Source of the DNA: Cladosporium halotolerans
Taxonomy: Eukaryota
DNA: 64,000 nucleotides
Assembly (NCBI RefSeq): GCF_011745625.1
Contig: NW_027191481.1
Span: forward strand, 124,001-188,000
Direction of reading: 5' to 3'
Positions within the stretch are counted from its first letter, which is position 1. The number at the start of each line of letters is the position of its first letter. A program made the position numbers and the translations under genes. Shown here piece after piece: positions 16,917 to 60,656 of this stretch. A model generated the notes under the pieces. That model did not search any database and was not told where the DNA came from. It saw only the letters and a list, made by a program, of their open reading frames with translations.

Positions 16917-19211
16917 GTTGACAGTATGGGGATGGAGAAGGAGAACGGATGGAGAAAGGCAAATCACCCATGGAGATAGAGCGTGATTATTAGCACTTCA
17001 ACGGCCAGATCCACAGCATGACGTCGGGCGATGGGATGTGGGCGTACGGGTGGACGCACCCTCCTCGCCATGGCGCGTGGTACATCCATCTCACGGCGCC
17101 CAGCAATTTTTGTTGGGTCTCTTCCGGAGAGATGGGGTTTACCCAAAGCCGCGCATGACCCGAGCAAACGCCTAGCAGGCATGTGGTTCGCGAGATCATC
17201 ACCCTTCGGCAATGTGGGCAGGGACACTGCTCGGGGTGTGACGAAGGTTTTGAGCAGATCGTTCATTTGAATCAGCATCGACGCTGAACGTTCGCTGGGA
17301 TCCACACGTCAAATCCACCAGACCCGATCTGCCAAGCGTGTGGATCTCGGACGGTCAAGACTCCGCCCAAGAGAGCCAAAGATATGGCTTGCTCGAATTA
17401 AGCAGCAACACTAGGACGGACTCGGCAACAAAGTCGACTTCACCCATCGTCGATGCCTGCCACGGCACCGTGGACCTCGCTGCAACGCCGAATTGTTGTC
17501 GCGCACGCAATTCGCGGTACCTGACAAATGTGAGACTTATCGTCCGGGGCTCCTTTCGCTGGCAGCGTGGGTTCTTCGGGGAAATCGCTGGGGTTTGACT
17601 GGGTCTCTCCATTGGGCCCTGAAGGAAGCAAACTCCAGTGGATATGGGTTATCTCCTGTTGTCTTCTGGAAACATCAATCTCCGAGTCAAACGTCAAAAG
17701 CCGGAGTATCTCCCGCACAACGCAAGGAGACGGCGGTATCGGCAGCTGGTAGAGAAGAGTCAATACTTAGGGCTCGCTTGCACATTCGCAGACTCAGCGG
17801 CGAGAGTTTGCCAATCGACGCGGCTTCGCGTCTTCCTCCGACGCTTGTGACGGTCGCCAAGTGCAACCGTAAGAAAGAGTTGGAACTCAACCATTATTAA
17901 GGTGCGGGCCGTCCCTTGATTGGGTCAAGCGTCTTCGGGTGGCGTTTGCCCCCGGGCTAATCATCCGAACGACATCATCGCTCCACTTGTTGAGACGCGA
18001 AGAGCTCTTGCCACAAAATACTTATGGATGCAAACAATTGTTGTTTGCCATGGTCTGAAATTTTGCTGAAAGATCTTTCAGCGGCGTCGCATGCAGGGCA
18101 GGGGTGGGAGCCTGATCTACCACATGCCGGCGTCAAGCTCCGTCCTCTCCTCGTTCAAACGGCTTCGGTCATGCGGCCGCATCGCGGCTCTTCTCGGACC
18201 ACCTGGGGATGCTGGCTGACGTACTCATCTTGTCGTGGTCAATAGCGTAAAAGTTTGGCCTCTTGGCTTATCGCCGAATTGCTACAGCTCTGATGTCACT
18301 CCATCTTCCCGGCATCACATAATCTCGTGGCATTTTCTCGAATGGCGCTCTCCGCGCGCTCGTCTCCATGCGGGCGCAGCGGGTCCAAGCGGATCTCGTG
18401 ATCGCACAGAAGACAAATGTAACGCGAGTGGAGATCTATCAGTCGTTGAATTAGCCTGACTCGATGTCATTCGCCTACGCGCCAAAACGGAGACTCGGGA
18501 CATCCATCGCCATCACCTCTTCGACTCTCTCGCGTCTGCGCATCCGCCCACGCCGCCGTCAGTGAATGGGAGGCCTTCGTCGCTGGCGGTGTTTTGAATC
18601 CATCCCTCCGAGACTTCTCTTTCGAGGTTGAAGTGATCACAGATAAGCTGCTCTGGATTTTGCTCCTGCTCTGGGACGACAGCACTCATGTCCAAGAAGC
18701 TCTGAGCAAGAAGAGCACAGGAGCTATCTGAAGCTGCATGGCAAATCAACTTGGCTCAACCATAAAGGTCATATACAGTAAAAGACGCTTGAGAAATACA
18801 TACGACCACAGGTCAGTGAAAACTGGGCATCCCGTCCGCTCTGCCATACATAAGCACTGAACCGGGCGACTAGTACTAGAGTGGGTGACCATCTGGGAAT
18901 CCCGCCTGTTGTATGTTTTTTGCTTTTTGTGTGGGCCCTCCATCTTGGAAGAGAGGCGTGAAGACAAAGCCTGTAAAGGCAGCATCAGACTGATGTGTGC
19001 GATGGAACTGGCGGATAACTTGTGTCACAGTTGAGGTTGAACACAAAGGCACATGGAGATCGAAGCGGTACGGCTTCCTATAAACAGATGTGGGACGCAA
19101 ACCTTGAACCTTGTATGCACTATTCCTTTGAAACCGTTGTCCGGTATTGTGTTATGTACTCTCAAGGTCATTCTGCCTTGTCCGTTGGCAAACAGTTAAG
19201 TCTGATTACAC

Positions 19212-47889: not shown

Positions 47890-48880
47890 TCACGATCAAG
47901 GCTGTTGCGGAAATGATGCTGGAATGGCTGGCGTTTATTGACGACTGGGGCGGGCTGTGGTCTGATTCACGAGGATGGAAAAGCGAATCACTTGCGTGGC
48001 AGATGGTGTAGAGTAGACGCGCGATGGGTTGATTGAAAGTATTTTTTCCACTTTTTAGCTCTGCTTATTGTTCCTCCCAGACCCTTCCTCCCAAGAACGC
48101 GTCAAGTGCTTCCTTGATGCCTCTTTGCTTCCGAGTATCGATGCCCTTTACACGTTCGTCCCACGTCGAATCTGCAGTCCGCCGACTCGGTTATTGGATT
48201 CCTCATTGATTTGTTTGGGCATTACAATTCGTCTAATTCGTTACAGTCCGTCCCCGCCTTCTGCTTCCTTAGCGATATCTTGCCGCGCCGAATCCTCCGT
48301 TCTTTCGGCTTTGACGGCCTTGCGATCCCTTGAGACGCCGCTATACTCCCGCCGTACGACTCTTGCTCCTCGATCGCCAATGTGTGCCGGTCATCCGCGC
48401 GCAAAACCCCACAACATGCTTTTATTGCTTGCAAGTGTTTTCGGATCGCTGGTAATTGCTGCTTTTCAAGCGTCTGCTGGGGCCGTGGTTGTTGAAGGTT
48501 ACGGAGCGTACGATGGGCTGTGCGATCGCCATGCGTACGGGCAGCGGGGCCTTGAGACTGACGATGCGCATGCGTAACTATGCTGGATTCCCGCTTTTCA
48601 TTTCGTAATCCTGCCATTTGATGGGCCTTCCGATGAAATCGGTTGCGAGAGAGTGTGAGGATGATGAGGGTGGGTCGCCCGTTGGTCTGAGCGTTTCAGG
48701 TAAGTGAGGTGTGTCGTTTGGGAGACCTTCATCTCCAGGTAATTTTTCGTTGCGGGGCGTGTTGCTGATATGAAATCCAGGCCATCATAGCATGCTGTTT
48801 ATTCTGCTTCGTCGCGCAACCCATTCCGGCATCGTGCTCGCCGAGCCAGCGCCGAAGCGCAGGAACTCAGCCAGCGATTC

Positions 48881-49258
48881 TCAGTAATGGCTCTGGCTGC
48901 CCGCCCTCGACTCGACGTCCTGCGCCACCGGCCGCAGCTCGTACTTCCAGCCGTACTTGTGCAGCAGCTCCTGGCGGTTGCGGTCGCGCACCTGCGCCAT
49001 GTACGACGCCTGGCTGAGGTCGCTGACTTGGCCGTCGACGCCTTCGATGCCGGCGGAGTTGCGTCCCTGCCGCTGGCCCATGAAGCGGTGCGAGATGGCG
49101 AAGCCAACGAGGACTGCGAAGCCGGCGCCGACGATGACGAGGAAGGTGACGAGCACGCCGTTGAGAGCTGGTGGCTCGTTGGCTGCTTGGCCGGCCACTG
49201 CGAGGGGTTGGTTAGGTGGCTCGTTGGAGAGTGGGGTTTGAGGGGTGTTTCGCTTACT
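48881..49258 (-). CDS. Small single-pass membrane protein (105 aa) with an intron-split start codon
   Basis: A at 49258, intron 49198-49257 (GTAAGC..CTAAC..CAG), then TG at 49197-49196 gives the ATG. TM segment VLVTFLVIVGAGFAVLVGFAI. Strong GC3 codon bias. Confidence 0.8.
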   Translation of the reverse strand, partial: SKRNTPQTPLSNEPPNQPLAVAGQAANEPPALNGVLVTFLVIVGAGFAVLVGFAISHRFMGQRQGRNSAGIEGVDGQVSDLSQASYMAQVRDRNRQELLHKYGWKYELRPVAQDVESRAGSQSHY

Positions 49259-51558
49259 TGTTGATGGGTTGGGTGGGTCAAGAGGTGGATTGGAAGGTTG
49301 TGGTCAGCGGTGTTGCTGGTCCAGTGGTGAGAAGGAGGGATGCGCGAGGTCAGAGTCGCGCGGGTGGGTATATGCTGTCCGTGGACGGGGCGCGTTCACT
49401 GCTGACACGTGAAAAGGCGAGGTCGTATGCGAAGATTCGAATAGTGCGAAGAGTCAAGGAACATCGCATTCATCACAAGGAGCGTCGTATCAGTCGGAGT
49501 CGTATGGAATACAAAGGGAAGGCTCGAAGCGAGTCCGTGGCCACCGGAGGCAGGCGGCATGCGGTTGATGTAGCGCACGGCGGAGGCGCATAGGTACAAC
49601 ACACACACCCCATCCCTCGCACGCCCTGCGGCCGGCCACCACCCACCACGACACCCCAATGGGACGTGTCAGAAAGTCACACCACATGTGGGAAGCGCTG
49701 GGTCGCGGATGCAGGGCTGCCGCTGGCCCTGTCCAGTGATATGACCCCACTCTCGTCAGGCCGCCACGCGCTGATTGGCGGCGCGCGCGGTGGTGTTTGG
49801 TACGTACGGGTGGCTGAGCTGAGCTTGTCTTCGCTACCGCACACCAACCTCAAATCTAGACACGCGGTATACGAGCCGCCCGCGTGGCAGGAGAATAATG
49901 CAATGCAGGTCGGCTGTACGGATGCTTACCCGCATCGTTGCAACAGTCGCATGCCGTAGCACATCTTGGAGCGCTTTGCACATACGCGATTTCCTTCGAA
50001 TGGCCGAACTCGCTTCTCAGCAGTCAGTCGCAACCAGTCTTTTTGCCAAAGAAACACCAGACATGCTATTGGTATGCGCCCGTCAAGATGTGTGAATGTT
50101 GTCAAAGCCTCGGCAGGGGGATGCGATGCGAGAAAGGTCATGGTTGCTTGCGCGTCCGGGATCCGCTACTTCCGGGCATCAAAAGCAGCATTCTTCGGAA
50201 CACAAACCCAGTGCGGGCCGCGCGTATCGACCACTTTTGCCTAGGCGGCTTTCTTGACATCTAAAAATGTCTTTTTCCTTTTTATCACTGGGCTGACATG
50301 CCAATTGCGATGGCGGTAGGTAGTTTTGTGCCATTTATGCCTGGAGCACTCACTCATCTTATCGGCCGTGAATATGCTCAGCCAACCGGTCGGGTATCAG
50401 AGGCAAATCGACAACATGGATCGATAACACCGGCAGTCACCACGCAGGTAGCTCCGATACGGCCGCTTCCATGCAAGCATTACCTGAGGTCATTATCTCT
50501 TCGTGTTATGACAACGAACTGCAGCGCGTGAGTCGCGTTCGCGTTCGCGCTTTCCCCGCTTGCAGCTTTCCAACCTCACCTCTAAGGCTCTACCTGCGTA
50601 CCAACGACACAAGTAACATTATATCCTCTGCACAAGATGTCGCTCGCTCTATCAATGCAGTTTCTACGTGATTCAAATCCGGTCGATCAGGATCGCGAAC
50701 GCCGAGATAGGCTTAGAGGTCCCATGATGCTTACCAGCTTTCAGGAAGATCGCGGAACCACCGATTTTGTGTTTTGACCTACGTGGTCGCGAACTTCTTC
50801 ATGCAAGGTCAACCAGAAGTCCTCGGAATTGACACGCGATGTTTCAAAGTAAAAGTATCCCTGCCCGCGCCGCCGTTGTGTGCTTTCTTTCTCGCCTAGC
50901 CAGTTTCTTCTCCGGTCAAGCTCTATAGCCGCCATCTTATACTTGCACTGGTGGGCTCTGAAGCGTCGACGTCACATAAGATTGCTGATGAGCAGAAAAG
51001 ACTTTTGGTGTCCTCCAGGCTTGTATGATAGAAATAGCGCGCAGCGACTCTGCTCACGGCGGGCCCAGGCCACCTGTATGATTGGCGTATAGTATCCACG
51101 GACCCCACCACATTCAGCGGACGCGTTTAAGCCTTGGGCAAAGCCATTTTCTGGTAAGTATGCCACTTGCCAGGAACGGTAACGAGATCAACCAGCTGCA
51201 CGGCAATATCCGTCGTGCGGCGTTCGGAACGTTCACTGTCAATGCTTCACCTGCAGGGGTTTTCTACTTCCTTGCATTACCTTGCTTCACATTGGTGATT
51301 TCTGTATCAAGCTTGTTTGTCTGAGGGGTAAAACGATCATTGATGCCGCAATGGAGAGACCGGCTCAGGGGCTGCTTTGCTGCAGAATGAATCCAGGGCG
51401 TTTCGCTGATGCTATTCGACTCTCGTTTCAACATCAGGATCGCTCTTCTGTTTGTACTAAGCGTGGAAACACCACAGTAGCCTCGCGGAAAGACTGCGCA
51501 AAGCAAGTCAAATTCTGGTAATCCTTTTCTGCAGCACAATTCCTCAAGAAGCGCAGAG

Positions 51559-54543
51559 ATGACTACATTACGTCTCATCGTTGCAATCCTTGGGGTGCTC
51601 TCGCCAAATCTAGCTGCTGCTGCGCCGGTACCCCAAGAATCTTCAGAATACATCATTGTCAACTCATACGAGTTCCCGGACCAGTCGACGCTCGATGCCG
51701 CTGTCAAAGGGGGCTCCTGGCACCAAAGCAAGAATGACCCAGCAGCCTACTGGACCTCCGAAAGGCGCGACGTGGACAAGCTGAATGCTACGCATGTGCC
51801 CTACGTCTACAACGTAGAAAAATCGAATAGACGCCACATCGTGTTTGCTGGTATTATAGTCTATGGAGAGCCGGATCCTTGGAAGTTCAAACCAAACCCA
51901 CAGATTTCAGGCGTCAACACTGCAAATATCAAACCTCCTCCAGGCGCCCCAAACCCTGGCCCTCCGATTACAGAAGCAGTGCCCCATTGCACACCAATGA
52001 CCCCGGAGCAGGTGCCTCGGCCTCCGCAAGGCCCATCAACTGTACCCCATCATACTCCACCGCAGGAAGTCACTTTGCCACAAGAAGTCAGGCCACCTCA
52101 CACCGTGCCGCAGGGCACTAGGCCTCAGTCGAACACGCCGCAGGAACCGAGACCGCCACAAGAGCAGCCAAACACTCCTCAACAAGAGCCTAGGCCTCAG
52201 AATCCGAACGAAGGTAGACCTCCACCTGCACCCGAGCAGCCTCAGCCTCAGCAACATGGATCTCCTGAGACGGCACCGCAACAACCACCCGCACCCGAGC
52301 AACCAAGACCCCAGCACCCTGCTGAGCAGCCTAACCCGAATGCAAACCCAGATCCTCATCCAAACGAACCTCCAGCAACGGAACCGCTTAAGCCCCAGCC
52401 GAAGCCAGAAAACCCGAATCCCCAGCCAGCTCCTGAGCAGCCAAATCCTCCGTCTCAACCAGAGCCACAACCACACCAGAATCCACCTCCTGGCACGGAG
52501 CAGCCGCGTCCGGCGGAGCCTCCGCGTGGCCCAGAGCAGCAACCAAAGCCGCAGCCAAACCCGGAGCAGCCGCCACCGAAGCCAGTACCGGAACCAGTGG
52601 AGCCTCAACCCAACCCTCCGTCTTCACCTGAGCAGCCTAAGAATCCACCCCCGCCTGAACAACGCATTGACAATGGAGGACCGAAGTCAAGACCTGACTC
52701 TCCCGAACCAGAACCACACGAAGTCGAGCCACCTACGCAGGACTCCGCTAAGCCTCAGAATGTGGACAATGCGAAGCCAGATCCGAAGGACGTGAAGCCT
52801 GAATCTCCAAGACCTGACTCTCCGCGACCTGAGTCGCCCAAGCCGGATAATATTAGCCCTGAGCCCAACTCACCGAAACCTGAGCCTCAGAAAGCGAATG
52901 AGGTGAAACCTGACGTGGATGGCCCAAAGCCTGAGTCTCCCAAACCTGACCAAAATGCCCCAAAGCCTGATTCTCCGGGACCGGACGGGGCGAAGCCTGG
53001 GGCCGACGGTCCAAAACCTGAGCCTCCGCAAGCGAACGATGTGAAACCCGACACGGACAACACGAAGCCTGGGTCTCCGAAACCTGATCAAAATGCTCCA
53101 AAGCCTGAACCTCCAGGGCGTGACGGAGTGAAGCCTGGGGCCGACGGCCCAAAACCTGAGCCTCCGAAGCCTGAAGCTGACGCTCTCAAAGCTGAGACAC
53201 CCAAACCTGACTCTCCCAAACCTGACAACATCGATTCTGATACGCGCCGGCCCAAACCTGACTCTCTGAAGTCTGAGCCCGACGCACTCAAACCTGAGCC
53301 TCCGAGAGCCGACTCCCCCCGACTTGACTCTAAGATAGATGGTCCGAAGCCTGAACCTCCAAAAGCTGATTCGCCAAAACTTGAGCCTCTCAGGCATGAT
53401 TCACCAAAGCCGGAACCTCCAAAAACACCTGGCAATGGTCTTGACCCTCAGCCTCCAAGACCCAATCCTCCAAAGCCGGGCTCAGATGTTCTTCCCAATA
53501 CTCCAAAGGAAGTGCCAAGGCCTCCTTCTCCAATGGAAGGCGGCACTGGCCCAAGACCCATTGGAGACGTTCCCGACCTTCCCAAACCTAACACCCCCAA
53601 ACCCCCGAAGAATGTGGGGAACTCGTTTACCAACGGAGGCTCTAACACTGGCTCCTCTTTCCCCTACCCTGGGTCCTCTTCGCGAGGAAGCGGGTACACC
53701 GGGAGACATTGGGACAGTCCAATCAGACCCAACGAAGGGTTCAGGAGACCGCTCGATCCAATGTCTTGGATGGACCAAGCTCAGGGTTACGACATTAACG
53801 CCATAGAGCAAAGGCTTCACGGAGAAGGGGTCAAGCCAAAACATTGGGAGCCGTCGACGATGGAGCAGCTCGATGGGGCTATTTTCGAGGGCCCCCGCAA
53901 CGTTGATCAGCTTCCCGATAACATCGATGGCAGGAAATTTGGCGAGGAGATGGCAAAGAAAAAGAAGGGCTTGTGGAAGAAATTTCTCGAAGCTGTCGAG
54001 AAGATTTGGAAATGGGTCAAGGAAAATGTGCGGTGGTTGCTCAACAAGATCTCGTCCGGCTTTGGTACTAAGATTGTTGGATATCTAGACAACATCGCGA
54101 GCGCGATGGGCAAGGCGCTCGGGCCAGCTCTTCATGTGCTGGAAAAGGCTGGGAAGGCCATCGCCAGGGGCTGGAAGGCCATTGCTGGGGCTCGTATTGG
54201 CCGAATCTTGAGCAGGTCGTTTCCCTGGCTCTTTCGGCTGGGGAACAAGTTCATGACGAAAGTCGGCGGCCCTACACTCCTGGTTTTGGGAGCTATCATC
54301 GACACCATCGACCTCGGGCTGTCGACTTGGTGCGCTGTGGAGCTGGGGAAAAAGACCTTCGGGCCAGACCCCTTCGGCTACAAGATGAGCCCGTATTGCC
54401 GGCAGATGGAGAAGGATATCGAATGGTTTTGGGAGGCTTATACCTGGATCGGAAGGCAGATGTGTAAGGTCTTGCCTTTCACATATGAGAGCATGCGCCG
54501 TTACGAAGGTTTCCTCGAGTGGAAAAAGGAAGTAGGCCTGTAG
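51559..54543 (+). CDS. Secreted 994-aa protein with a small N-domain, a long Pro/Gln/Lys/Glu/Asp repeat stalk and an amphipathic helical C-domain
   Basis: Single long ORF with signal peptide MTTLRLIVAILGVLSPNLAAA, PEQP repeats followed by PKPE/PKPD repeats, and a Trp/Lys-rich C-terminal region of about 190 aa. Confidence 0.85.
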   Translation: MTTLRLIVAILGVLSPNLAAAAPVPQESSEYIIVNSYEFPDQSTLDAAVKGGSWHQSKNDPAAYWTSERRDVDKLNATHVPYVYNVEKSNRRHIVFAGIIVYGEPDPWKFKPNPQISGVNTANIKPPPGAPNPGPPITEAVPHCTPMTPEQVPRPPQGPSTVPHHTPPQEVTLPQEVRPPHTVPQGTRPQSNTPQEPRPPQEQPNTPQQEPRPQNPNEGRPPPAPEQPQPQQHGSPETAPQQPPAPEQPRPQHPAEQPNPNANPDPHPNEPPATEPLKPQPKPENPNPQPAPEQPNPPSQPEPQPHQNPPPGTEQPRPAEPPRGPEQQPKPQPNPEQPPPKPVPEPVEPQPNPPSSPEQPKNPPPPEQRIDNGGPKSRPDSPEPEPHEVEPPTQDSAKPQNVDNAKPDPKDVKPESPRPDSPRPESPKPDNISPEPNSPKPEPQKANEVKPDVDGPKPESPKPDQNAPKPDSPGPDGAKPGADGPKPEPPQANDVKPDTDNTKPGSPKPDQNAPKPEPPGRDGVKPGADGPKPEPPKPEADALKAETPKPDSPKPDNIDSDTRRPKPDSLKSEPDALKPEPPRADSPRLDSKIDGPKPEPPKADSPKLEPLRHDSPKPEPPKTPGNGLDPQPPRPNPPKPGSDVLPNTPKEVPRPPSPMEGGTGPRPIGDVPDLPKPNTPKPPKNVGNSFTNGGSNTGSSFPYPGSSSRGSGYTGRHWDSPIRPNEGFRRPLDPMSWMDQAQGYDINAIEQRLHGEGVKPKHWEPSTMEQLDGAIFEGPRNVDQLPDNIDGRKFGEEMAKKKKGLWKKFLEAVEKIWKWVKENVRWLLNKISSGFGTKIVGYLDNIASAMGKALGPALHVLEKAGKAIARGWKAIAGARIGRILSRSFPWLFRLGNKFMTKVGGPTLLVLGAIIDTIDLGLSTWCAVELGKKTFGPDPFGYKMSPYCRQMEKDIEWFWEAYTWIGRQMCKVLPFTYESMRRYEGFLEWKKEVGL
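52877..53166 (+). repeat. 138-bp (46-aa) tandem duplication within the PKP[E/D] repeat array
   Basis: GAAGCCTGGGGCCGACGG occurs at 52992 and 53130. ANEVKPD at 52894 pairs with ANDVKPD at 53032. Confidence 0.85.
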
Positions 54544-55334
54544 ACGTGTCTTTAGCCGATTGGTCGGTCTACAAATAACCCTCCAATGTCAACTAGGAGC
54601 GTTGGGTTCTAGCGAATTTTTGATAGCAACGAAGCTACATAATGGGTAATAGATTGTCCTTCGCTAGCTTCGACAGTGCCTTCAATGTGACTTTAAACAT
54701 GCTACAACCTTAAGAGAGGATGATGGCAGACTCTCGTAGCCAAACGTCAGATGACGATCCTACACATAGGGACGTTTAGAGATAATCCTCGTTATGAATT
54801 TCGTACCTCATTCAGGCGCTGATGCTGGCACTTCAATCATGGGTCGGCAATGGCCAATTGAGGTGGTATCTGATGATAGAGCAAGGCTTCGACGAGCCGC
54901 GTGCCAGTCTCGGTCTGACGCGCATGGAATGCTGCAGGCTCGCGGTCAGGTAGGTTTGATTGGCTTTGGAGGGGGAGCTGCACAGCAGGAGGCTTGTGCG
55001 CGCTGCGCGGTTTGTGATTGCCCTCCAACGGCCACTGCTGTTTGCTGCCATGCACCTCTACACCCTCTATCTGCATGGCCAAACAGTGAAGTCTGCCCAC
55101 CGAAGGACGAATCCCACCTTCGTCAAGGCCAACGCCACTCGGCGGCAATCGACTCTTCTATTACTCTCCTTCCCGTGTATATCTCTGGTTCAGTCTTCTC
55201 GAAACGACGCGCGAGAGGAACACGCTCAGGCTCCACTTTCCACAACGCGTCTGCAGCCACTCACATCGCCTCACGACCAGCGAACAACACAATAACACGC
55301 ATTTTCAACCGCTTCTCAAGGCACGCAAAAGCAC

Positions 55335-57947: not shown

Positions 57948-58512
57948 GAGGGCTCACAGACCGGTTTTCAAGATCTCTATGTGCTTGTTTTCATGTTTCG
58001 ATTTGGGATTTTTCAGGCGCACGTATGGTTTCTAATGGCACTCAAGATGAGTGCTGCATGTGGGTGGATCATTATTTCACGGTATCATTACTTGCAGTAC
58101 GAGTGCTTTTCTCGCGATTTCGGGGTTGGCAGGCAATGCATGGCATAGGGCAGCATTCGGTAGTGGAGTATTTGCATCTTTTGCACGTCACACCTTTCTC
58201 GACTCAGATCTTTATTTCTATGTCATGAATGTTATAAATAGATGGCTCTATTTCTGGCTCGAAAATCGTGAGGTACTGAGAAAACGAAGCATCTAGAGCA
58301 AGTAGTCAGGGAGTCGTGCACGGGATGTTCCTCGAATCGATCGCACCCGCCCATACACGACGACACAACGCAAAGGCGCAACACCTAGGTCTTGGTCCAA
58401 GATGGCCAAGCGTATCTCGGGACGGACAACACTCCGATCGTCGCGCTCAGGTTGCAACGGAGGTCACCGTAGCGCGTCCTTGGCTCATCTAATTGCTCGT
58501 TTCAATGCCCAG

Positions 58513-58563
58513 AATCTGATTAGCCTGAAATCTAATCAGATTTTTCACATTGTCGATCTTATC
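58513..58563. promoter_or_regulatory. Candidate SreA/Urbs1-type iron-responsive GATA elements
   Basis: Perfect 11-bp inverted repeat AATCTGATTAG(58513-58523)-N8-CTAATCAGATT(58532-58542) plus GATAAG on the minus strand at 58558-58563, about 120-170 bp upstream of the siderophore transporter ATG. Confidence 0.7.
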
Positions 58564-58683
58564 AATCGGACCATTCTCATCCAACATTGTGCCCGTACTT
58601 TTCTGGTTATTCATTGTGATATAGACATTTCCTTTTCGTTGCTGCTTTTTGAATTCCCATTCGAAAGAAGACATTCTCGCGGA

Positions 58684-60656
58684 ATGGCTGAAGGTTCGTC
58701 AAGGTCAGAAGTTGGGCAAGCTCCTACAGCCTCGGCTGGCAAACCGATCCCAAACATCCGCGAGGAGTCCTTGACGAACACGTCCGGGAGCACCACATCG
58801 GATCAAAACGATGTAGTGCAGGATAAATCGCCTGGTATTGCCAGGATTGAAGCGATCAACAGAAATCTCACTCGTGCGGATCGCATTAGCCTGTTCATTG
58901 GTGTCTTCCTGATCGCCTATGCGTATGGATTGGATGGGACTATTAGAGCCACTTATCAGGTACGAGAGCGAAGCTACATGGCTGGGGACAATCGACTGAT
59001 TGAATTGACTCGTAGGCCACTGCATTGGCGGACTTCGAGAACCACTCTCTCATCTCGACCATCAACGTCGTCCGTACAGTCATCGCCGCCGCAGCTCAGC
59101 CCACAGCGGCCAAGATTGCCGATGTCTTCGGCCGTCTCGAGCTCGTCTACGTCTCGGTGGCTTTCTACGTCGTCGGAACGATCATTGAAACCTTTTCTCA
59201 CTCCGTGAGCACTTTCTGCGCAGGAGCCGTGATTTACCAGATCGGCTTGACCGTCGTCACCTTCCTCGTCGAGGTCATCGTCGCGGATATCAGCTCGCTT
59301 CGATCGCGTCTACTATGGTCTTATATTGCTGCGACCCCATTCATCATTAACACTTGGGTGAGTGGCGATGTTGCTCAAGCTGTGCTTAGAACGACATCGT
59401 GGAGGTGGGGTGTTGGCATGTGGGCTATCATTTACCCTGTCATGGCGATTCCATTGATCGCGTCGCTACTCCTGGCTGCGCGCCGCGCGAGGAAATCCGG
59501 CGACCTCGATGGTCACAAAACACTGCGTCGTCAGATTGGTTTCAAGAAGCTGATCATCAGTCTTTTCTGGCAACTGGGTAAGTCAGACTCAGGCTTAGGC
59601 AATCGCAAATGACCACTCAGCCTCACGGACATACTGACCAGCGAACCTCCAGACCTCATCGGTGTCCTCCTTGTCATCGTAACCTTCGCCCTGATCCTCG
59701 TCCCTTTTACCCTCGCTGGTGGCCAGACCCAATCCTGGGCCAGCGCACGCATCCTCGCGCCCCTCATAATCGGCCTCGCCCTGATCCCAGCCTTCATCCT
59801 CTGGGAACGCCGCGCGCCGCATCCTCTCGTCCCCTTCCCCCTCCTCACGGACCGCAGCGTCTGGGGCGCCCTCGGCCTCGCATGCATGCTCAACTTCGCA
59901 TGGTACTTGCAGGGCGACTACCTCTACACGATCCTGGTCGTGGCCTTCGACGCCTCCGTGTCTGCCGCGACCCGCATCGCGTCCCTCTACAGCTTCGTCT
60001 CCGTCCTCACGGGCGTAGGCTTATCCCTCCTCGTCCGCTTCCGCATCCCCTACCTCAAGCCCTTCGTCGTCTTCGGCACCCTAATGTTTCTCCTCGCTTT
60101 CGGCCTGCTCATCCACTTCCGCAACGGCGCTCTCGGCAATGCCTACGCAGGCGTCATCGCCGCCCAGTGCGTGCTCGGCTTCGCAGGCGGCTTGTTCCCG
60201 TATCCCACTCAAGTCCTCATTCAGGCCGCCGCACCCCACGAGCACCTCGCGCTGCTCACGGGGCTGTACCTGGCGTTCTACAGCATCGGGTCCGCCCTGG
60301 GCAACGCTGTGAGTGGCGCGATCTGGACGCAGATTTTGCCCGAGAGGTTGAGGGCGGAGCTGGGTGGCGATGGGTCGACGGCGGAGATGGCGTACTCGGA
60401 TCCGTTCGGGTTTGTGGCGGAGTTTCCGGTCGGGACGATGGAGCGCGCGGCGGTCGTGAGGGCGTATGCGGGCGCGCAGAGGGTGTTGTGTATCACGGGC
60501 ATTTGTCTTTGCGTGGTTTTGGTGGGGTTTGCGAGTGTGTTGAGGAATCCGAGGTTGGGGGTGGAACAGAGCTTAGTGGAAACTGATGGGAAGGTGAAGA
60601 GAGATGCAGCTGGAATGATGAGCGGAAGGAGGAATGGAGGGCGCGAGGAGGATTGA
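58684..60656 (+). CDS. MFS siderophore-iron transporter (Sit1/Arn/Mir family), 3 exons
   Basis: [52 protein letters not shown] and [16 protein letters not shown]. Introns at about 58960-59015 and 59578-59652. Confidence 0.93.

Follow-up and report, generated by a model that had tools for sequence, protein, structure and literature searches.

Ece1, the precursor of candidalysin, is 271 amino acids (aa) long and consists of peptides set apart by seven KR sites; Kex2 cuts after Arg61 and Arg93, and Kex1 trims the product to yield candidalysin (PMC5784256). Changes from KR to KA block this release, and Arg is needed at P1 (PMC5784256). Dermaseptins are Lys-rich peptides of 24–34 aa with a Trp at position 3; their ends are set by processing, and their precursors contain a convertase site next to a short acidic stretch that acts as spacer (PMC4885059). 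VdTRP of Verticillium dahliae is a small secreted toxin with an N-terminal CFEM-like domain that targets it to the membrane; targeting is needed for toxicity, and the toxicity is carried by four 14 aa Pro-rich repeats (PMC11584738). The gene considered here is an uninterrupted open reading frame (ORF) of 994 codons plus stop (51559..54543, + strand) in a 64,000 nt stretch of the genome of Cladosporium halotolerans (contig NW_027191481.1, positions 124,001–188,000). This whole stretch is called the window, and its coordinates are used throughout. An earlier note on the same DNA had proposed that the ORF encodes a membrane-active secreted protoxin, with a lytic peptide at the end of a Pro-rich stalk.

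The present protein resembles Ece1 in looking like a secreted fungal precursor in which an amphipathic, membrane-active-looking helix follows basic residues. It differs in being 994 aa long, in having no KR, and in that the helix is the first of a conserved ~230 aa domain that contains a Cys pair; no sequence relation to Ece1 was found by Pfam and phmmer searches. With the dermaseptins it shares a Lys-rich amphipathic helix, an acidic region upstream of it and, only if cleavage after K803 is assumed, a Trp third after the presumed start that is invariant in all six members of the family described below. Here, however, neither a convertase-type site nor an end behind the first helix is found, and conservation continues through residue 965. 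VdTRP is likewise a secreted fungal protein in which Pro-rich repeats are combined with an N-terminal domain and a C-terminal region, but the present protein has no CFEM domain, its repeat region is about 600 aa long, its candidate membrane binder is C-terminal, and the parts of the two proteins are unrelated.

The reading we tentatively favour is that the protein ends in a polycationic all-alpha domain of a new, lineage-restricted kind, which would bind to anionic surfaces, of lipid or otherwise, as an intact and spacer-tethered unit. The protein would be secreted and modular, comprising a signal peptide, a small head, an extended Pro-rich spacer of about 600 residues and an all-alpha C-terminal domain (approximately residues 733–965, with a core at 800–965 of pI ~10) that is probably braced by one Cys pair. 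The intact domain would dock peripherally, in the plane of the surface, through amphipathic helices lined with Lys/Arg and Trp, while the acidic spacer would keep it linked both with the wall and with the remainder of the protein. Its role would be that of a membrane-attachment or contact module, not that of a precursor of a free 28-residue peptide; anchoring to the producer's own membrane or wall, and perturbing a foreign membrane, are both compatible with such a module. The whole gene and the parts of its C-terminal module are as follows.

51559..54543, + strand: whole gene, a single ORF; mature protein of about 106 kDa, pI 6.2
53755..53955, + strand: acidic lead-in, about residues 733–799, with conserved MSW.D...GYD.NAI and invariant LDGA (771–774)
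53956..53967, + strand: KKKK run, residues 800–803; K802 invariant
53968..54051, + strand: helix 1, residues 804–831, GLWKKFLEAVEKIWKWVKENVRWLLNKI; amphipathic, W806 invariant, helical in both AlphaFold2 (AF2) models (low confidence)
54127..54252, + strand: helices 3–4, residues 857–898, ALHVLEKAGKAIARGWKAIAGARIGRILSRSFPWLFRLGNKF; Gly/Ala-rich, the most cationic and best conserved part, with invariant WKA (872–874), G881, P889, R893 and G895
54256..54339, + strand: TKVGG turn and 'hydrophobic' helix, residues 900–927, the apolar stretch GPTLLVLGAIIDTIDLGLSTWCAV being residues 904–927; invariant G904, G911, D918, C925 and V927
54331..54399, + strand: Cys pair C925...C947, invariant in 6/6 members, with invariant K931 between
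54400..54453, + strand: last conserved helix, residues 948–965; D953 invariant
54454..54543, + strand: lineage-specific C-tail, residues 966–994 (including C969), and stop; hydrophilic

All the stretches that the earlier note had quoted are present at the places given. Codon 800, for the first K of KKKK, begins at base 53956, and the KKKK run (residues 800–803) is followed by the GLW-start helix (804–831) and then by the Gly/Ala-rich cationic helices (857–898). The Cys residues of the tail are 925, 947 and 969, and the isoelectric point rises from 4.72 in residues 721–799 to 9.97 in the tail core.

The conservation of the module was assessed with its homologues. A phmmer search with residues 744–994 against 1.84 billion cluster representatives (E ≤ 0.001) returned P0003 (5.5e-56) and P0004 (1.5e-10) only; a word-index search added P0005, at 95% identity, and a profile search added P0006 and P0007. 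The homologue search on the C-domain proposed earlier thus produced five sequences at 27–95% identity, all from Logan assemblies and none with a name or a Pfam domain. The present protein and P0003–P0007 make up the six members, in whose six-row alignment the identities to the present protein are 95, 45, 29, 27 and 27%. Invariant residues occupy 25 columns and include LDGA 771–774, K802, W806, A853, WKA 872–874, G881, P889, R893 and G895, and further along K901, V902, G904, G911, D918, C925, V927, K931, C947 and D953. Homology extends from about residue 733 to about residue 965 (~230 aa), and the C-tail (the last 29 residues) is absent from the three distant homologues. Because Gly and Pro are invariant at the helix junctions, as are D918, D953, R893, K901, K931 and the C925/C947 pair, the conserved unit of ~230 aa reads as a folded domain would, not as a string of peptides, and the invariant Cys pair probably forms a disulfide that braces it.

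The distribution of the domain is narrow, with six sequences in all from few lineages. All five homologue entries open with an internal Met, which corresponds to M768 or M735 or, in P0006 and P0007, lies 13 residues before the M735 equivalent, and are suspected to be truncated gene calls in front of a Pro-rich region. A word search for longer relatives among proteins of 546–1740 aa found none in 702 candidates, two scans of JGI metagenome contigs gave 593 and 592 pattern matches with none confirmed, and the full-length protein is absent from the protein collection searched.

The tail is strongly basic and strongly amphipathic. Counted from the start of the basic run, net charge is +17 to +24 in all six members, and the pI of the tail is 9.5–10 across them; helix 3 carries +4 to +8 and helix 4 +2 to +4 in every member. 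Over 18 residues, the helical hydrophobic moment of the tail peaks at 0.77, compared with 0.53 ± 0.08 for 2000 shuffles (seven of which reach 0.77), and 36 segments have a moment of at least 0.55, a number attained by none of the 2000 shuffles (mean 1.4). The periodicity of hydrophobicity has its maximum at 100 degrees in 6/6 members, and apolar positions are conserved in class at a spacing of 3–4. The amphipathicity of the tail is therefore far beyond chance, and the periodic alternation of Lys and hydrophobic residues pointed out in the earlier note is borne out by the shuffles and by the 100-degree peak.

Helix 1 is the part that most resembles a free lytic peptide. According to the protoxin explanation, the stalk serves as a spacer or as an inhibitory pro-piece, and a cut at KKKK frees a lytic peptide that starts GLWKKF, perhaps together with further helices. 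The moment of helix 1 is 0.56–0.70 across the six members and 0.70 in the present protein, where its charge is +4. Both the Trp third after the basic run and K802 are invariant, which recalls the Trp at position 3 of the dermaseptins (PMC4885059), and the acidic stalk and lead-in (pI 5.25 and 4.72) precede a basic tail (9.97) much as acidic spacers do in the amphibian precursors (PMC4885059). The charge of helix 1 is, however, +4, +4, 0, +5, +3 and +7 in the six members, falling to zero in P0003, and the basic run, which in 5/6 members puts at least two basic residues immediately ahead of x-[LFV]-W, is K-Q in P0004. There is no KR in the 994 residues (RR occurs five times), to be set against the seven KR sites of Ece1, from which candidalysin is not released when the P1 Arg is changed to Ala (PMC5784256). 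Nor is there a processing site or a stop after helix 1; conservation goes on for another ~135 residues, including the Cys pair, and Pfam antimicrobial-peptide families gave no match. On this balance the protoxin explanation is very unlikely, and release by kexin of a dermaseptin- or candidalysin-like peptide, as the earlier note had envisaged, is not supported, given the missing KR, the net charge of 0 of helix 1 in P0003 and the ~230 aa span of conservation. What stands of that proposal is a conserved domain of a secretory-pathway protein with physico-chemistry compatible with membrane binding.

Two memberships were rejected on similar grounds. The protein is not an Ece1-type polyprotein, since KR flanks with a P1 Arg are absent and the basic run is of Lys only, and at 994 aa, with a 595 aa stalk and a conserved domain of ~230 aa, it is not a short precursor that consists almost entirely of released peptides. 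It also does not belong with the dermaseptins or cecropins: there is no Pfam profile match, the helix is unbounded and its charge is not conserved (0 in P0003), so that the likeness is one of composition. Motifs like those of antimicrobial peptides (a GLW start, K/hydrophobic periodicity) can occur inside a conserved folded domain, and a peptide-precursor reading needs processing sites as well; here these motifs are read as part of the folded domain, on the evidence of the alignment, and not as signs of a peptide precursor.

Searches for known families and folds gave little. At E ≤ 1, Pfam recognised no family in the whole protein, in the C-part or in any of the six members, and NCBIfam, searched with five members, gave a single match (E 0.2) far below its cut-off. 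The best PDB matches, 0.36 by sequence and 0.054 by profile, were both to designed helical bundles and are not significant, and the ESM Atlas score of 0.81 for the C-part is at the level reached by shuffled proteins. AF2 modelled the C-part as long helices, with a mean confidence (pLDDT) of 44.2 and 43.9 and a predicted template-modelling score (pTM) of 0.42 and 0.25 for one and six input sequences, respectively. With the first of these low-confidence models (pLDDT 44), Foldseek matched only generic helical bundles (best E 0.21), and the VIA fold search gave at best a Z of 9.8, to a FAT domain, below the bar of about 13 for helical bundles. The check by AlphaFold and Foldseek suggested in the earlier note thus gave no usable fold: helices are predicted, but at a pLDDT of 44 and with only generic bundles matched. 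In a literature search for which subscription journals and supplements were out of scope, no description of the protein was found and the exact helix 1 string was unmatched. The domain family thus appears to be undescribed, without a Pfam or PDB relative. The HeLo and HeLo-like cell-death domains were considered and rejected, there being no Pfam match in 6/6 members and the protein having a signal-peptide-like start while HeLo domains are cytosolic.

The second element to which the earlier note had drawn attention is the hydrophobic stretch, along with three Cys. The stretch is present at 904–927 and the Cys at 925, 947 and 969, though the hydrophobicity of the stretch is weak in three of the six members and it contains an invariant Asp. 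The maximal Kyte–Doolittle hydropathy over 18 residues (KD18) of this helix, taken as residues 903–926, is 1.54, 1.58 and 1.56 in the close group of members and 0.61, 0.56 and 0.92 in the distant group, and the helix bears two acidic positions, of which D/E915 is conserved and D918 invariant.

Alpha-helical pore formers such as the colicin pore domain, Bcl-2/Bax and the diphtheria toxin T domain have a buried hydrophobic hairpin of about 40 uncharged residues. The C-domain is like them in size (~170–200 aa), in being all-alpha and in having an apolar helix flanked by cationic amphipathic ones; it is unlike them in that the apolar helix is single, of about 22 aa, carries D915 and D918 and is not conserved as apolar. 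An intact C-domain acting as a pore-forming toxin would be a bundle that is soluble at first and opens once on the target membrane; it would be directed at competitors or a host, and might reach them by contact, from the tip of the stalk. It would agree with one apolar helix among cationic amphipathic helices in an all-helical domain, with the conserved strong positive charge, with the secretory route, and with the up-down helical bundle of the low-confidence model. We consider it unlikely, because a conserved hydrophobic hairpin is missing, the one apolar helix being weak in 3/6 members and having the invariant Asp; the low-confidence model matches only generic four-helix bundles (Z 9.8, Foldseek E 0.21); the neighbouring genes are of housekeeping type; and a 600 aa stalk is of no obvious use to a diffusible toxin.

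The same helix could in principle be a membrane span. Hydropathy over 19 residues (KD19) is 1.58 at residues 907–925, which is below the rule-of-thumb threshold of 1.6 for membrane spans. A type I wall-sensor protein, in which 903–927 would span the membrane, the stalk would cross the wall and 928–994 would be cytoplasmic, would also account for the KK that follows the helix, and the order of its parts would mirror that of Wsc-type sensors (PMC9024836). The resemblance to Wsc-type sensors lies in a signal peptide, a head, a long low-complexity stalk and a C-terminal element near the membrane (PMC9024836). It ends at the head, which has neither WSC (PF01822) nor Cys, and at the stalk, which is Pro-rich with 10% Ser+Thr and not Ser/Thr-rich as in Wsc/Mid2 sensors. 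Stalked adhesins share the same general layout. As a single transmembrane helix of the Wsc type, judged by hydropathy, the segment has a KD19 of 1.58 here against a KD18 of 0.56–0.92 in the distant members (3/6), and D/E915 and the invariant D918 lie within it. By the positive-inside rule, moreover, the ~100 residues of net charge ~+12 that would sit outside are on the wrong side, and the Cys pair, which brackets the end of the helix and the 'tail', fits a single oxidising compartment. A wall sensor is accordingly the least probable of the explanations weighed here. A wall adhesin anchored by glycosylphosphatidylinositol was rejected as well, judged from the sequence: the C-terminal 40 residues, which finish with WKKEVGL, are charged and aromatic and offer no hydrophobic C-terminus.

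A soluble helical bundle with a ligand other than lipid has more in its favour. The ligand would be an anionic wall polymer, extracellular DNA, polyphosphate, a hydrophobic surface or a partner protein, and the protein a component of the wall matrix or of adhesion; fungal wall proteins have a similar layout, with a head, a stalk and a terminal domain. Despite its high pI the domain has many conserved acidic residues (D+E = 13–16 within 162 aa in the close group), unlike a typical lytic peptide, its hydrophobic positions are regularly spaced at 3–4, and the nearest PDB sequences, though not significant (E 0.05–0.4), are designed soluble helical bundles. Intrahelical salt bridges, counted as opposite-charge pairs and looked for as a sign of a soluble bundle, showed no enrichment over shuffles in 6/6 members. 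Against such a bundle, no ligand-binding family was recognised, and the present copy, with its ten Trp and Lys/Arg-lined amphipathic faces, has the typical features of an interfacial binder, although the number of Trp is only 3–4 in the homologues. This explanation is possible but doubtful.

The remaining parts of the protein bear on the secretion and the tethering that are assumed in the favoured reading. They are arranged as follows.

51559..51624, + strand: signal-peptide-like N-terminus, residues 1–22, with one Arg, a core LIVAILGVL and AAA before Pro
51625..51933, + strand: head, residues 23–125, of mixed composition, with one NAT sequon and no Cys
51934..53718, + strand: Pro-rich stalk, residues 126–720, 595 aa with 32% Pro and 10% Ser+Thr, pI 5.25
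52876..53226, + strand: 138 bp (46 aa) tandem repeat, ~2.1–2.2 copies, plus 15 bp units, in the stalk

Residues 6–24 are the hydropathy peak of the whole protein (KD19 1.99). A secretory route is suggested by the signal-peptide-like start, and an oxidising compartment would suit the conserved Cys pair, so the protein would be secreted. The head gave no match in Pfam, a best E of 0.48 against the PDB by sequence, and no usable match in the ESM Atlas.

The stalk corresponds to the ~600 residues of Pro-rich repeats seen in the earlier note, and consists of two halves. The first (126–380) is rich in Q, E and P, with units of the PEQP/QPNP type, and the second (381–720) in K, D, S and P, with PKPE/PKPD/SPKP-type units; a fourth Cys, Cys 144, lies at the start of the stalk. 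Between 52798 and 53226, stalk half 2 is made of 15 bp (5 aa) units and the 138 bp repeat. Relatives vary in the repeat zone by 15 nt insertions and a 102 nt skip, so the stalk is polymorphic in length. Of 469 differences between 51300–54800 and the relatives' contigs, 40 were displayed, and the 35 of these that lie in the ORF (codons 2–613) were used, the five upstream being excluded. Nine are synonymous and 26 non-synonymous, with 10, 11 and 14 at codon positions 1, 2 and 3. Since amino acids change almost freely while frame and composition are kept, the stalk behaves, to judge from these substitutions, as a spacer would. Pro-rich spacers are known from TonB and from the wall-spanning regions of Gram-positive proteins, and plant hybrid proline-rich proteins combine a Pro-rich domain with a small helical lipid-binding C-domain. 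The alternating Pro-Lys and Pro-Glu/Asp units of the stalk (PKPE, PKPD, KPEPP) resemble those of TonB and the wall-spanning segments as an extended spacer that joins two functional ends. These proteins, like the plant ones, belong to other kingdoms, and have no sequence relation to the present protein and unrelated terminal domains. Antisense to the stalk, at 52036–53435 (− strand), lie Arg/Leu/Trp/Gly-rich ORFs of up to 190 aa; these mirror the Pro codons and are not evidence of a gene.

The reality of the gene was examined with contigs from four public runs, compared over 51300–54800. Stops are absent from the 994 codons of the coding frame, while the other two forward frames have 18 and 57, and an in-frame stop at 51478 lies 81 nt 5′ of the ATG. 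In the C-module, GC at third codon positions (GC3) is 0.68 and at second positions (GC2) 0.41, like the neighbouring genes. The relatives' contigs cover the ORF at ~87–99% identity, and likeness stops 14 nt 5′ of the ATG (51545) in a more distant contig and 28 nt 3′ of the stop (54571) in another. Seven indel events are listed in the relatives' contigs when adjacent table entries are merged (+6, −6, +15, +15, +9, +3 and +9 nt), all multiples of 3, as is the 102 nt skip; one relative has a net 9 nt insertion at 54482–54483, within the C-tail. No splice joint was seen among the contigs compared. Given the open frame, the neighbour-like GC3/GC2, the frame-keeping indels and the end of likeness at the ORF borders, the ORF is regarded as a genuine gene with a single exon, from a filamentous-type fungus.

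Several points nevertheless weigh against the favoured reading of an intact, surface-binding domain on a spacer. The signal peptide was judged by eye and by hydropathy alone, and its cleavage site is a deduction. The joining of stalk and signal peptide to the domain is seen only in close relatives, the homologue entries beginning internally. Binding to lipid is deduced from physico-chemistry, and models with a pLDDT of 44 do not define the packing or the exposed faces; for a helical domain this basic, wall polyanions, nucleic acid or a protein would be equally plausible targets. In one relative's contig (run X15, record 11) the two joints add up to +56 nt, a number not divisible by 3; this contig may be a repeat misassembly or a broken copy. 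Transcript support comes from three short contigs of one metatranscriptome (X18), a type of library in which DNA is possibly present; they span 52878–53029, 53970–54301 and 54286–54470. Membrane binding, and a tethering role for the stalk, thus remain suggestions drawn from composition and conservation.

A bolder form of the favoured reading, which we regard as distinctly unlikely, is that of a fungal membrane-attacking family, in which a disulfide-braced, polycationic helical warhead on a polyproline stalk perturbs or perforates the membrane of a neighbouring microbe or host by contact. By analogy, it would be a fungal counterpart of the bacterial contact-dependent weapons. Extended polyproline measures ~0.31 nm per residue, and the stalk could reach, as an upper bound, about 180 nm (595 residues × 0.31 nm). 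If the C-domain does bind or break membranes, it represents a new fungal membrane-active domain family without a detectable Pfam or PDB relative, and one that is, unusually, tethered by a very long Pro-rich spacer, which would bear on how moulds attach to, sense and attack their neighbours. Should it be no more than a basic domain of the wall matrix, the gene would simply encode one more wall protein of restricted distribution. Taking the whole case together, nothing shows that a small killing peptide is released, and the stalk ends in a conserved cationic helix bundle that probably sticks to membranes.

The genes around the ORF are eukaryotic housekeeping genes, encoding a Sec23/24-type protein, condensin Cnd1, a protein kinase and a SET/AWS protein, and a search for paralogues within the 64 kb window found one locus only. 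The ~3.5 kb between the Sec23/24-type gene and the 994-codon gene (48012–51558) contain no ORF of 250 aa or more, and the longest ORF in 50000–51558 is of 155 aa; the region may be an extended promoter, or may harbour a gene that is rich in introns or non-coding. Two + strand ORFs that lie downstream of the SET/AWS gene, one of 268 aa (58402–59208) and one of 325 aa (59609–60586), have no Pfam match at E ≤ 0.001. No tRNA genes were found in the window, and a complete 5S rRNA gene (18798–18917, + strand), which matches Rfam RF00001 over the full length of the model with 78.5 bits, is isolated between protein-coding genes.

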